A stretch of DNA of 64,000 nt from Mobula hypostoma (lineage: Eukaryota): assembly GCF_963921235.1 (NCBI RefSeq), contig NC_086108.1, positions 69,442,001 through 69,506,000 of the forward strand. The letters are read 5' to 3'. Position numbers and translations under genes: made by a program. Under the pieces are notes generated by a model that saw only the letters and a list, made by a program, of their open reading frames with translations, searched no databases and was not told the origin of the DNA. Below are positions 1 to 9,456 of the stretch, piece by piece. Position 1 is the first letter of the stretch. Each line of letters begins with the position of its first letter.

Positions 1-1173
1 TGCCACAATCCACCAGGAACTGTAAGGCTGCCCAGACACTTGGTCACACCTGGATGACACTGTTGTAACCAGTAAGGATGACAAGAAACGTCTCAAAATC
101 TCAAGACAGTGTTAAAAAGATTACAATATTATGGGCTAGAGCACGATGCAACAAGTGTGAACTCTTTAAACCAAGCATCACTTACTGTGATCTCACCATT
201 GACGCACAAGAATTACACAAATGTGCTGAGGAAATTCAAGCAGGGGTGGATGCTCCAAGGTCAAGCAACATACCACAGTTGCAGTCTTTTTTTTTAAGAG
301 TTTCTCAATTCCTATAACAGGTTCCGGCCAAACCTGACTACCGTGCTCCACCCTTGAACTCATTACTACAGACTGGGAGGAAATAGCAATGGACAAAGTG
401 GTGTGAGGTGGCTTTCCAAAAGGTACAAGAAATGGTGGCAACACACACTCTACTCACACATTAAGATCCACAATGTCCAGTGAAGCTTCCCTGTGACATT
501 TCAGCTAATGGTATAGGTGCAGTTATGTCACATGTTATGAGTGATGGAAGTGAACGCCCCATAGTCTTTGCATCACTTTCCCCTACTGCTGCAGAGAAAA
601 ATTATGCACAGATTGACAGAGAGGCCTTGAGTCTGGTTTGGGCTGTAAAACTTTTCAATCAGTACTTGCATAGGAGAGAGTTTACCCTCATTATTGATCA
701 TCAACCACTGGTGTCCATGTTCAATCCACAGAAGGGTGTTCCACTAACAGAGGCAGCACAAGTGCAGAGATGGGCTCTGTTTCTTGGAGGACACAATTAC
801 AAGACTGAATTAAAGAGGAAAACTAATCATGGAATTGGTCCCAGTTATCCTTGCAAAAGGAAATACTAGAAAAATTAACAAAAAAAGACACTCCTTTTGA
901 CATACTCTCCCTAATGCAAATCAATGGCAGAAATAATCCAAAGGGAAACCAGAAAAGACCCTGCACTGTCTCAAGCCTGCAGGGTCGCTGAAAATTGCGT
1001 TGGAATGTGCAGCAGAAATTCCAGTTTCCCCATTTTTATTAGCGCTGGGATGAGTTTGCCCTTGACAGAGGTTGCCTTATGTGGGGATTGACAGTCGTTG
1101 TACCATCCAAGCTGAGAGCTAAATTGTTGGAGGAGCTACATGCTGGTCATCTATGTGTGGTCAGAATGAAAGC
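1..1173 (+). mobile_element. Degenerate Ty3/Gypsy pol fragment (RT end, RNase H, start of integrase zinc-binding region)
   Basis: ORF 480-869 has the Gypsy RNase H pattern (CDISANGIGAVMSH...ERPIVFAS...EKNYAQIDREAL...FTLIIDHQPL...QRWALFL). Downstream LLEELHAGHLCVVRMK resembles the integrase H-H region. Frameshifted; cut by a CR1 at ~1174. Confidence 0.85.
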
Positions 1174-2456
1174 AAGCCAGTTCTGTATCCACAAAGCAAG
1201 GTCCCCTTGGATCTCATGCCTCCTTACTCTCTCAATAAGCCTTGCATGGGGTACCTTATCAAATGCCTTGCTGAAATCTATATACATGTCATCTACTGCT
1301 CTGCCTCCATCAACATGTTTAGTCACATCCTCAAAAAATTCAATCAGGCTCGTAAGGCACGACCTGCCTTTGACAAAGCCATGCTGAATATTCTTAATCA
1401 TATTATGCCTCTCCAAATGTTCATAAATCCTGCCTCTCAGGATCTTTTCCATCAACTTACCAACCACTGAAGTAAGGCTCACTGGTCTATAATTTCCTGG
1501 GCTATCTCTACTCCCTTTCTCGAATAAGGGAATAACATCTGCAACCCTTCAATCCTCCGGAACCTCTCTCATCCCCATTGATGATGCAAAGATTATTGCC
1601 AGAGGCTCAGCAATCTCCTCCCTCACCTCCCACAGCAGCCTGGGGTACATCTTGTCCAGTCCCGGAGACTTATCCAACTTGATGCTTTCCAAAAGCTCCA
1701 GCACATCCTCTTTCTTAATGTCTACATGCTCAAGTTTTTCAGCCTGCTGTAAGTCATCCCTACAATCGTGAAGATCCTTTTCTGTAGTGAATACTGAAGC
1801 AAAGTTTTCATTAAATACCTCTGCTATCTCCTCCGGTTCCATACACATTTTTCCACTGTCACACTTAATTGGTCCTATTCTCTCACATCTTATCCTCTTG
1901 CTCTTCACACACTTGTAGAATGCCTTGGGGTTTTCCTTAATCCTGCTCGCCAAGGCCTTCTCAAGGCCCCTTCTGCTCATCTGTTTTGTTCATGATGTTT
2001 CTTGCATTAAAATAGACACATCTCAAACCATCTGTCTGAGTGTGTATCCCTTCTCTATCACCTGTCTATCTTCCCTCCTGCACTGTCTCCAAGCTTCCTC
2101 TATTTGTGAGCAAACCACCCCTTCCTCCGTCTCTTCAGTTTGGTTCCCACACCCCAGCAATTCTAGTTTAAACCCTCCCCAGCAGCCTTTGCAAACCTCC
2201 CTGCCAGGATATTGCTCCCCCTCGGATTCAAGTGCAACCCGTCCTTTTTGTACAGGTCACGCCTGCCCAAAAGAGTTCCCAATGATCCAGAAATCTGAAT
2301 CCCTGCCCCCTGCTCCAATCCCTCAGCCACACATTTATTCTCCACTTCACTCTATTCCCTTATTCACTGTCATGTGGCACAGGCAATAATCCCGAGATTA
2401 CTACCTTTGAGGTCCTGCTTCTCAACTTCCTTCCCAACTCCCTGTAGTCTGTTTTC
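1174..2456 (-). mobile_element. CR1 LINE fragment with internal deletion (ORF1 esterase end joined to ORF2 tether/RT)
   Basis: Minus ORFs show QHGFVKGRSCLTSL, DFSKAFDKVPH and KSPG. ORF 2163-2345 (DGLHLNPRGSNILAGRF...GLN*) matches the end of the CR1 ORF1 esterase. The endonuclease region is missing. Confidence 0.85.
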
Positions 2457-3162: not shown

Positions 3163-3845
3163 ATTAGGGTTAGGTTCATCCATCGTCATCAGTGAAGACC
3201 TTGACACCATTAGTACCTTTTTTTAAAACGAGGTCAAGTTGCTAGCTCAACGCTCAACCCAGCACAGATGCAGCTGGTCGGATTCGAACTCGGGACCTCT
3301 CGCCCTGAAGTCCAGCGCTGATGCCACTACGCCACCAGCCGGCTGATGGTGTCGAGACTAGTGCTTGATTTGGATTTAAGTGAGGGAGAGTTGCGCAACG
3401 TCAACCTCACTCTCTCTTCCCAATTCCCATTTGGATCCAGTGGCAAGACAAAAGTCGAGACAGCTGGAGATGGGACTAGGCGCAGTGGATGACCAGGACA
3501 TCTTCTGTGTCTTGTCATGTTCTACGCGTTCCACGACGCTTGCAGAGATCGCCTTCTTGACCATTGGACCTTCCGCTAGTCTCGTCCGCTCAATCCGCCG
3601 GAGTCTGTCTTCACATGCTGGGATAGACAACCCCCTATCTCACCGAGGGTTTGAGACCCGTCAGCTACCCTCACCTGGTTTAGCCGGCTTGTCAAAGCCG
3701 TTGCCTGGGGTGTGGCCGCTGTCGCATGCAAACAGCTACGGGGAGCCACAGGTCAGAGCTGAGTGCCAGGTGGGGACCAAAGGTGCGCTAACCACCTTGA
3801 AAAGGACGCGACATGTTCCCCCACCAGAGGTGCTACCCCTCCCTG
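3163..3845 (-). mobile_element. Non-autonomous RTE-type element (5'UTR-derived) interrupted by a SINE
   Basis: GC/CpG-rich block in AT-rich flanks. It contains GGCAACGG...GCTAAACCAGGTGAGGGTAGC, which I recall from RTE 5' regions, and ends in a short CCTAA-type tail. No RT coding remains. Confidence 0.55.
3218..3343 (-). mobile_element. tRNA-derived SINE
   Basis: Minus strand reads GCCGGCTGG-TGGCGTAGTGG (A box)...GAGTTCGAATCC (B box), then a non-tRNA body and an A7 tail. Confidence 0.8.
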
Positions 3846-4829
3846 ATACAATGGAATACAAAAGTAAGGAACAAGGAAAACTGATTCATAAATGCAAATA
3901 TTAGTGATACTGTTTTTACTTTCACTAATCCTTGGTAATTTTCTGGAAACGTACAAGGAAGGCATGCTTGAAATATAACCACACCTCTACCATAAAGCCC
4001 CATCCTGGGAACAGTCCCTGTTAACATGGGTGACAAAGTAAAAGAGGTTTACACGCTGGAAAATATTCTGATTTTATTTTCTATCTGCATCATTGTTTTT
4101 TAAAATATTTAATTACTGTTCCTGTGCACCACATACAATTACTTGAAAAGTTGTAACAGTAATAGCAACATTTCCTCATGGGTAGGGCTGATTGACTATT
4201 ATTGGGCAAATAATCCAGTAGTTAATGGGTGGGTAATGTTTAACTGCATTACTGATTTTATTGTTTAGCTGAGGTATGCTAGCCCTCTAGGAGGTTTATA
4301 ACATGACATTTAATCAGATTCAGATGCCTCTGTAGTTAGGACAAAGGCTGGAATGTAACTGGATATGCCAGCAAATGGGAGGCTAACACACCCTTCAACA
4401 ACTGGGCATGTAGCAAAATGAATAGGCTGCACAGTTTAACAGGAACTACTGGGAATTAATAATATTTTCTCACAATGCAATGTACATATTCCAATAACTA
4501 CTTGTATATATTTTCCTTTCTACAGTTTGTTTTTGTTTTTAATAAGAGACTTATAACCGCACAATTCAGACAGCCAGACCTGTCCTATCACATTATCTCA
4601 TTTGGAATAAACAGGAAAAATTAAATCAGAAAGGACTTTCGAACAAACAGTAGAGTGTCGTTCATGTCATTATGACCAAAAGCTGAAATGATCACAGATT
4701 CACACAGTAATTTGGTTTTATGTCACTGCAAACCCCTCTGTCCTTCAGATAACATTGTCTCCTTTTTCCAGGAAGCAGGACAAAATATACATAACCATCA
4801 CCTCAAATCATGGAAGCCTGTAAAATCTG

Positions 4830-6817: not shown

Positions 6818-7741
6818 ATTTGTTGGAAAAGTTTCTACATTGACAATTGCAGGTAAATGGTCTAAAGTCAAATTACTACCCTTTCATCTCCTTAGCCCAT
6901 GACAGAAAGTATTATTTTGTTTTAAGAGAATCTCATCCAATTTCAAGCTTATTGAGGACCATCTTAAACGCTACTTTAGACACAGGATGGTACCTGGAAA
7001 TTTCCACACAAAGAAGTTCAGATTTGATTTTTTTTTTAAAATCACAGAGACTTATCCAGGAAAGGCCAACTATCCATCCAATTAAACCCAGAAAGAGAAT
7101 AGTATTTTCTTAGTTTATTTTAATATTATGCTTTCACTTACAAATGAGGTGCATATATAGTGTTAGAGCACTCCATCAATTTCATTTGGTGAGAAATGGA
7201 AGGATCATCCCACATTCTAAACAAGGCTACATCATAGGCTGGACAGTTGGTAACACTTGAGGAAGAATCAGGCCACATACAAATCCCAGTTACGTACGAA
7301 TACCTAAGGTTAGGTGAACTTCACAACCACTAACCTATCGCAAGATTAACAACTACATGACTATTAGAACATCTTGACGCAAAATCTATTCAAAGGCTGA
7401 CTGAACCAAAATTAGTTCCTGAGGACAAGATCTTAGCCAGCAATTTGAGAGATTAATTATGTTCTAGGAATGGCAGCTGACCTGGTGAACTGGAGACAAA
7501 TCATCTGTGATTTAGCTGAAACTAGTCCCATCTCAGAATCAGTGGGTTGTGAAACTGTGCCATGTGTAAACTGGGTGCTAGGTTTCCTATATTAGCAACT
7601 CTACTTCAAAAGGTATTCTTTATTGCCTACAAATTACTTTGGGATAACATGTAGATGCGTACATTCCCACTGACCAGTTTAATATGCTTGTGATTTAAAC
7701 TCAGCAAAAGCCATTACCAAGTAAGGCTGTTAGGTTTCACT

Positions 7742-9456
7742 ACATGTGCCTGGAGGCGGAGGAGGTTAGGGAGGTCCTAAATGAATACTTTGCTTCAGTA
7801 TTCACAAGTGAAAAGGATCTTGATCAGGGTGAGATCGAAATAGAACAGGCCTGTGTGCTGAATGATGTGGAGATTAAGGACGAAGTGTTGGATCTTCTTA
7901 AAAACATCAAGATTGATAAATCCCCAGGGCCAGAAGTGATATACCCCAGGTTGCTGTGGGAAGTGACAGAAGTGATCGCTGGAGCAGTAGCTATGATCTT
8001 TGAATCCTCTTTGGCTGCAGGGGAGGTGTCCCTTGTTTAAAAAAGTTAATAGGGAGAATCCTGGGAAATATAGACCGGTGAGCCTTATGTCGGTGGTCTG
8101 CAAACTATTGGAAAGGATTCTTAAGGATAGAATATACGAGCATTTGGAGAAGTACAGTCTACTCAAGGATAGTCAACATGGCTTTGTGAAGGGAAGATCG
8201 TGCCTCATGAACCTAACTGAGTTTTTTGAAGAGGTAACAAAAGAAATTGATGTGGCTAGGGCAGTAGATGTGGTCTACATGGATTTTAGCAAGGCATTTG
8301 ACAAGGTCCCCCACAAGAGACTCATCTGGAAAGTCATGAGGCATGGGATCAGTGGAACCTTGGCTGTTTGGATAAAAAATTGGCTTACAGGAAGAAAGCA
8401 GAGGGTAGTAGTGGAAGGAAAGTATTCTGCCTGGAGGTCAGGGACTAGTGGAGTGCCGCAAGGATCTGTCCTGTGACCCCTGCTCTTAGTGATTTTTATA
8501 AACGAACTGGATGAAGAGGCGGAAGGATAGGTGAGTAAGTTTGCAGATGACACGAAGATCGGAGGAGTTGTGGATGGAGCTGTAGGTTGTCGAAGGTTAC
8601 AAGAGGATACAAAAGGTTACAGGATGCCGAGTGGCAGATGGAGTTCAATCCGGATAAGTGTGAGGTGATGCATTTTGGAAGGACAAACCAGAAGGCTGAG
8701 TACAGGGTTAATGGCCGGTTACTTAAGAGTGTGGATGAACAGAGGGACCTTGGGGTTTAAATCCATACATCCCTCAAGGTCACTGCACAGGTTGATAGGA
8801 TAGTTAAGAAGGCCTATGGGATGCTAGGCTTCATTAATAGGGGGACTGTGTTCAAGAGTAGAGAGGTCATGTTGCAACTCTACAAATCTCTGGTGAGACC
8901 ACACTTAAAGTATTGTGTTCAGTTCCGGTCACCTCATTATAGGAAGATATGGAAGCTATGGAGAGGGTACAGAGGAGATTTACCAGGATGTTTCCTGGAT
9001 TGGAAAACCAGTCTTATGAGACAAGGTTAGCAGAGCTGGGACTTTTCTCTTTGGAGCGTAGAAGGATGAGAGGGGACTTGATAGAGGTCTACCAGATTAT
9101 GAGAGGCATAGATAGGGTGGATAGCCAGTACCTCTTTCCCAGGGCATGAATAGCAAACACCAGAGGGCATGTGTACAAAGTTAAGGGAGGGAAGTTTAGA
9201 GGAGACATCAGGGGTAAGTTTTTTTACCCCTGTGAGGGTTGTGAGTGCCTGGAATGACTTGCCAGGGATGGTGGTGGAGGCTAAAACATTAGGGTATTTA
9301 AGAGCCTCTTGGACAGGCACATGGATGAAAGAAAAATAGAGGGTTACAGGGTAGTGTGGGTTTAGTACTTTTTTTTAAGGAATATATGGGTTGGCATAAC
9401 ATCGAGGGCTGAAGGGCCTGTACTTTGCTGTAGTATTCTAGTGTCTAGTGTCTAGT
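7742..9456 (+). mobile_element. CR1 LINE, 5'-truncated, RT to 3' tail
   Basis: ORFs with KSPGP, YRPVSL, QHGFVKGRSC, DFSKAFDKVPH and GVPQGSVL (stops and frameshifts present). Tail is TTCTAGTGTCTAGTGTCTAGT. Confidence 0.92.

Follow-up and report, generated by a model that had tools for sequence, protein, structure and literature searches.

The minus strand of the window (the whole analysed stretch of Mobula hypostoma DNA, 64,000 nt long) carries, at ~3849–3164, a 5′-truncated copy of a bipartite non-autonomous RTE element with a 133-nt insert inside it. We consider it probable that this region is the truncated, likely inactive head of an RTE element, and that a predicted HDV-like self-cleaving ribozyme with a hairpin in loop L3 stands at the start of its family. 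The strand architecture, a sharp boundary at the family's 5′ end, the occurrence of the same head on protein-coding RTEs, covariation in the peripheral helices and retention of the L3 hairpin were all directly observed. Taken by itself, the window copy is an ordinary repeat, probably dead, from a short RTE retroelement that codes for no protein. Its parts, from the 5′ end of the element, are as follows.

3847..3855, minus strand: possible degenerate target-site duplication, uncertain; partner at 3163–3156, with one indel
3164..3849, minus strand: RTE element copy, 5′-truncated; the family length is ~570 nt, to which the 133-nt insert is added
3757..3849, minus strand: remnant of the J1/2 domain; first GGGGUGU missing, second cut, P1a absent
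3835..3839, minus strand: GGGGU, previously read as P1a; in the family a J1/2 strand pairing with CCCC at 3775–3772
3748..3756, minus strand: 5′ strand of P2; C>G at 3754 gives a G–G mismatch in the window copy
3745..3747, minus strand: 5′ strand of P3, GGC
3717..3744, minus strand: L3, 28 nt, a UCCCCG core followed by the hairpin insert
3744, 3743–3742 and 3739, minus strand: L3 core residues U20, P1.1 CC and G25, respectively
3718..3736, minus strand: the L3 insert, a hairpin of 19 nt between A (3737) and G (3717)
3714–3716, minus strand: 3′ strand of P3, GCC
3707–3713, minus strand: 3′ strand of P1 (P1b), ACACCCC
3705..3706, minus strand: 3′ strand of P1.1, AG in the window copy and GG in most copies
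3685..3700, minus strand: P4 hairpin, with compensatory changes between families
3680..3684, minus strand: J4/2, GCUAA, with the predicted catalytic C at 3683
3670..3679, minus strand: 3′ strand of P2, with one bulged C
3345..3669, minus strand: rest of the RTE 5′ UTR, containing the RTE-11_PSi match
3212..3344, minus strand: insert containing motifs like an A-box and a B-box, joined at the same points in other copies
3164..3211, minus strand: RTE-type 3′ end with a short tail, resembling RTE-1_PSi 3726–3767

From the letters of this DNA alone, an RTE-type element had been proposed to carry an HDV-like fold at its 5′ end, and every strand named in that sequence-only reading is present on the minus strand at its assigned place. 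The family evidence supports the fold, cleavage being predicted. The window copy lacks the first 12–15 nt of the family: its alignment begins at family position 13, and the family's G1 projects to 3861. Since the copy aligns from position 13 only, it has no P1a, and 0 of 7 P1 pairs are present. The loss of P1a, together with the mutations in P1.1 and P2, predicts that the copy is dead; the earlier suspicion to that effect is thus probably right. The A in P1.1 had been tentatively attributed to CpG decay, and the 55 full-length copies agree: 45 of them have G at this place and 10 have A, and their divergence is CpG-driven (12.2% vs 2.2%).

The 133-nt insert (3344–3212, minus strand) lies within the loop of a hairpin at the element's 3′ end, and its second half is RTE-UTR-like. 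Because it recurs at the identical junction in three of 30 sampled copies, it defines a composite subfamily, seen in L006, L046, L054, L055 and L132. ARAGORN found no tRNA for the insert and its A/B-box-like motifs. The flanks of the element hold fragments at 465–869 (plus), 1147–1989 (minus) and 7699–9030 (plus), which we take to be an LTR-type RNase H-like region and CR1-type reverse transcriptases.

Exact matches to a 29-mer number 1,644 in the 3.48-Gb Mobula hypostoma genome (control, 0), which sets a lower bound of at least 1,644 copies for the family; the initial genome candidates for the region numbered 2,587. Family copies are ~570 nt long, have (CAA)n-like tails and are often flanked by target-site duplications of ~8–14 bp. 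The copies show target-site duplications, a microsatellite tail, 5′ truncations and inversions, all of them traits of bipartite non-autonomous RTEs, and their make-up is likewise bipartite: the two ends of an RTE LINE, 5′ and 3′, with no ORF and with a head common to ORF-bearing copies. The element is also present in eight organisms among the assembled contigs of sequencing runs. An inverted 5′ part ending at G1 was seen in L056, L131, L166 and L233; the inversion junction of L056 uses ACACCCC, which is common to P1b and to the reverse complement of the element start.

Four other diverged families in the Mobula hypostoma genome bear the same head, and two of these are protein-coding RTEs. The single match from a metagenome scan, L163 (WLWI01004976.1), is an intact RTE that combines the same head with a 5′ UTR and an open 1096-aa endonuclease and reverse-transcriptase frame. 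Its protein retrieved three RTE families from the Mobula hypostoma genome. This head opens two of the three, and pattern searches added two further, older families that carry it.

The 5′ end of the family was located with 82 copies gathered by a 3′-end pattern, a sample which is therefore unbiased for the 5′ end. In 43 of these the start is exactly the first G of GGGGTGT, and in 55 it lies within 4 nt of that base; the remaining starts comprise four at positions 7–12 and 23 scattered further in. A ribozyme-anchored sample agrees, with 14 of 30 copies beginning at position 1. The GGGGUGU at this end pairs 7/7 with P1b ACACCCC. The sequence-only reading had instead set G1 at 3839, as the element boundary, and had drawn the GGGGU there as the P1a strand of a weak 5-bp P1. 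This part of it fails: none of the 82 3′-anchored copies starts at the equivalent position (position 23), the family start lies 22 nt upstream of it, and homology in the window copy itself continues beyond 3839 to ~3849. The GGGGU pairs inside J1/2, its counterpart AGAGU in L163 cannot pair with P1b, and the family P1 is a 7-bp helix formed by sequence that the window copy has lost.

An extra G at an element start is a signature of reverse transcription of a cap. Among the 43 copies that start at G1, the preceding base is T in 31 and G in only two, so the extra-G signature is not seen and the RNA end would fit an uncapped one. Four of these 43 full-length copies (L218, L234, L235 and L251) have extra sequence ending in GTAT upstream of G1, which at its longest exceeds one additional 9-nt unit and might reflect slippage or a template jump. 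A sharp 5′ end could also be produced by an internal promoter. The head would then be a conserved structured RNA or such a promoter, with the 5′ end set by the transcription start, no self-cleavage and an active site blocked by the L3 hairpin. We judge this to be unlikely, since the start is exactly the G at which a 7-bp helix with a strand 147 nt distant begins to pair, a G before G1 is rare, and the equivalents of C75, U20, G25 and P1.1 are kept while adjacent positions vary.

The conservation of these residues can be given in numbers. The predicted catalytic C of J4/2 is kept in 54 of 55 full-length copies, where CUAA fits the published CNRA pattern, and G25 is kept in 52; all of the core features together are intact in 19 of the 55. 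P3 is 3 bp long with U20 and G25 in L3, and these columns are invariant in a 23-row alignment in which they were partly fixed by the search pattern. P1 starting at G1 has 7/7 pairs in the family and 6 bp in family F5, where pair 7 is a C–A mismatch. Families F2–F4 have AA at L3 positions 4–5, as opposed to the C of the published descriptor, and two F4 rows carry P2 mismatches. All pairs of the nested double pseudoknot (P1/P2 and P1.1/P3) are possible, with 80–96% of cells paired.

The alignment comprised 23 hand-picked heads: four from the window family, six from F2, six from F3, two from F4, three from F5, L163 and the window copy. Over its 52 counted pairs, 89% of cells are paired compared with 37–49% in slid controls, a margin to be read with the caveat that related rows can beat a shuffle control without structure. 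Thirteen of the 52 pairs change on both sides (nine in J1/2, two in P4, one in the L3 hairpin and one in P1), the sole P1 change being confined to a single row and probably due to decay. No covariation was found in P2, P3 or P1.1 within the 23 rows; P1, P3 and P1.1 are conserved without it, a point in favour of the internal-promoter alternative. Core invariance is partly circular in 13 of the rows (F2 except L187, F3, F4 and L163) because the search patterns had fixed part of the core. Copies found through their protein are unbiased witnesses, as they were not selected for the motif, and they display the same core.

A covariance model run over 19 sources matched the window, L163 and L288. The last of these is a distant relative (E 1.8e-6) in which 11 of the 12 pairs of P2 are kept, two through compensatory change, along with the same bulge. 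Where P3, L3 and P1b would lie, it has the P4 region repeated in inverse orientation, perfect over 19 bp; L288 thus supports P2 and is uninformative on the core. L288 itself is an RTE on a contig filed in a bacterial MAG, adjoining a tandem array, and has two perfect fold-back repeats (229–252 and 279–325) in its 5′ head. The covariation check that accompanied the sequence-only reading thus gave a divided answer: covariation is present in J1/2, in P4, in one pair of the L3 hairpin and, in L288 only, in P2, and is missing from P1, P3 and P1.1.

Another explanation is that chance alone makes a GC-rich UTR read as HDV-like. At E ≤ 5 the window matched no Rfam ribozyme model, and four other, better-preserved loci matched none at E ≤ 10. 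Our own relaxed descriptor, which allowed an L3 of up to 35 nt and was run on both strands of the window, matched this one site, and shuffled windows yielded 0.16 sites each, or 0.08 with P1 of at least 5 bp (50 Markov shuffles). On its own, the motif thus exceeds chance only moderately, and the main support comes from the family. A strict descriptor requiring 7/7 P2 pairs gave no matches in 20 shuffles; it misses the window copy because of the P2 mismatch there. Against chance stand the position of the arrangement, which coincides with the end of the element in each of five families and in an unrelated contig, the covariation of P4 and J1/2 and the compensated P2 of L288. This explanation is largely refuted and very improbable.

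The J1/2 domain accounts for the GGGGU that had been read as P1a. In the stem that contains it, 94.5% of cells are paired and two pairs are compensatory; in L163 both strands have changed together, to AGAG/CUCU. The window copy might still be active as originally drawn, using the GGGGU at 3839 as a 5-bp surrogate P1: five pairs with P1b can form (−7.5 kcal), freeing the strand would cost ~5.5 kcal in this copy, and the available part of one report describes a 4-nt P1 for one R2 ribozyme (PMC3774820). The strand is, however, predicted to be 59–100% paired within J1/2, the copy has an A–C mismatch in P1.1 besides the G–G mismatch in P2, and none of the 82 copies begins at the equivalent of 3839. 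Activity of this kind is therefore very improbable, and we retain the reading of a dead copy from a ribozyme-headed family.

A second GGGGUGU lies 9 nt downstream of the first and is predicted to be locked in the closing helix of J1/2. The predicted cost of freeing this strand is 8.0–11.6 kcal in three families and 0.3–5.2 kcal in F5. Starts at the second unit were found in seven of the 16 F5 copies compared and in four of 59 in the window family (Fisher p 0.001; six of 22 F5 copies, three at positions 5–6 and three at 60, were left out), a comparison confounded by the identity of the two 9-nt units, since a copy that has lost one of them looks like a second start. Both L181 (664–681) and F5 have the same U-to-C change at position 7 in both tandem units, which suggests that one unit may have been regenerated from the other.

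The extra hairpin that had been seen in L3 is kept in all five families and in L163, and it follows UCCNNG-(U)A. It shows one compensatory pair, in two rows of one old family. Published descriptors, as far as the consulted text gives them, define L3 as TYYHCGN{0,1}Y (7–8 nt) and J4/2 as CNRA, and limit J1/2 to 51 nt (PMC4870747). At 28 nt the L3 of the element lies outside that length, which again favours a head that does not cleave; its first six bases fit the pattern in the window family. The hairpin comes directly behind G25/U26, at a point for which the published pattern permits a single optional base, and it probably points outward from the active site. Given a loop too long for the descriptor, we place the head as a variant predicted to work like the HDV-like family. 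Short-L3 matches number only 21 genome-wide and look like scattered deletions in known families, so no hairpin-less family has expanded, and the idea of one was rejected.

A direct parent LINE with matching ends was not found in the Mobula hypostoma genome, and searches through variant 3′ or UTR motifs returned only copies of the short element (15/15 and 6/6). The best candidate mobiliser is the L199/L200 family, which has the most similar tail and a UTR block at 74–75%. It belongs to an RTE family with a GC-rich tandem-repeat head (L184:711–1050 and L188:712–1050 on the ORF strand, L189, L191, L192, L199 and L200), which shares the downstream 5′ UTR block, gives no match to the ribozyme model and is apparently younger. 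Such a different head on a related RTE family is a further point for the promoter alternative; on the ribozyme reading, it is an apparent swap of the ribozyme head for a promoter-like one. DUF6451-type RTE families were rejected as parents, as they have no similarity to the element and the model finds no such head on L111. L111 (3260–6313, minus strand) is an RTE of this type with an open 1018-aa frame, and at least four such families, with ends unrelated to the element, occur in the genome. Vingi was dropped as a partner once RTE matches had been found.

Further afield, viral contigs gave no match, and neither did prokaryote genome contigs searched with one protein. Prokaryote genome bins gave 11 RTE-like loci by alignment, of which 10 were searched with the model and only L288 matched; these loci are probably eukaryote contamination. 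The non-coding stretch 3505–3356 (minus strand) matches the printed turtle consensus RTE-11_PSi 370–519 at 136 of 150 positions, counted by eye, and this 91% identity hints that the RTE group may have been horizontally transferred. RTE-1_MD shares a UTR block with the element.

Taken together, these observations are consistent with the following course. The element would be co-transcribed from host promoters, and its head would fold into the nested double pseudoknot, in which the closing helix of J1/2 would hold the second GGGGUGU so that the first cut site is selected. C3683, the C75 equivalent, would then cut 5′ of G1 and release an uncapped unit-length RNA, which an RTE protein could copy in trans by target-primed reverse transcription. 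The closing helix may also speed folding, as P1.2 does in drz-Agam-2. Whether a group of animal RTEs (those of Mobula hypostoma, the turtle RTE-11_PSi and possibly RTE-1_MD) relies on an active subclass of HDV-like ribozymes not yet described, in which L3 holds a sixth helix and a decoy P1 strand chooses the cut site, is a more tentative proposal, to which we give slightly less than even chances. If it is true, the subclass would be invisible to published descriptors, and vertebrate HDV-like ribozymes would be undercounted by thousands of copies. An active head would mean that a helix can occur naturally in the loop from which the HDV active site is formed, and both the fold and the search descriptors would be widened; it would directly support Kojima's suggestion of a ribozyme head kept by bipartite RTEs; and it would predict that RTE 5′ UTRs akin to that of RTE-1_MD bear a self-cleaving head, RTE-1_MD being a gene-writing chassis for RNA-based gene insertion according to the text available (PMC13708176).

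Ribozyme-headed RTEs are already known, and the L3-hairpin form is a variant of them. HDV-like ribozymes have been placed at the 5′ ends of R1, R2, R4, RTE and Ingi as well as LOA elements (Ruminski et al., 2011, as cited in the accessible parts of PMC5786205 and PMC6765202), and the core features of the fold are described in the portions consulted of several reports (10.1101/2022.09.22.508989; PMC3774820; PMC6765202; PMC10879173). As far as these sources extend, the element shares with the 5′-end ribozymes of non-LTR elements an exact 5′ end, the P1/P1.1/P2/P3/P4 order, the J4/2 C and a conserved downstream with a variable upstream sequence, and differs from them in its 28-nt L3 hairpin loop and tandem P1a strands. 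The literature searched contained no described ribozyme for this vertebrate RTE group and no HDV-like ribozyme with an L3 insert, a 28-nt L3 or a doubled P1a; Ruminski (2011) and Webb & Luptak (2011), which lay outside its coverage, may describe one. Bipartite non-autonomous RTEs (RTESINE2, WALLSI3, MAR4_MD and RTE-N2_Lch) have been described by Kojima (2018), and in the text available they likewise join the 5′ UTR to the last ~40 nt (PMC5786205). From the parts consulted, they and RTE-11_PSi, RTE-1_PSi and RTE-3_AMi have the same 3′ motif and (CAA)n tail as the element. The same text only predicts that bipartite RTEs may keep a ribozyme, and the head motifs are absent from the portion of its supplement covered. 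Retroelements with HDV-like heads in other clades, internally deleted ones among them, include, in the excerpts available, the R2 SIDEs (PMC3414825), R2 being site-specific, and the trypanosomatid L1Tc/ingi elements (PMC4035085). A structural parallel is with drz-Agam-2 of Anopheles: both have a large structured J1/2 closed by P1.2, which speeds folding in drz-Agam-2, and an extended P2. In the accessible text no L3 insert is mentioned for drz-Agam-2, whereas the P1.2 of the element is also predicted to hide a second copy of P1a (PMC4908430).
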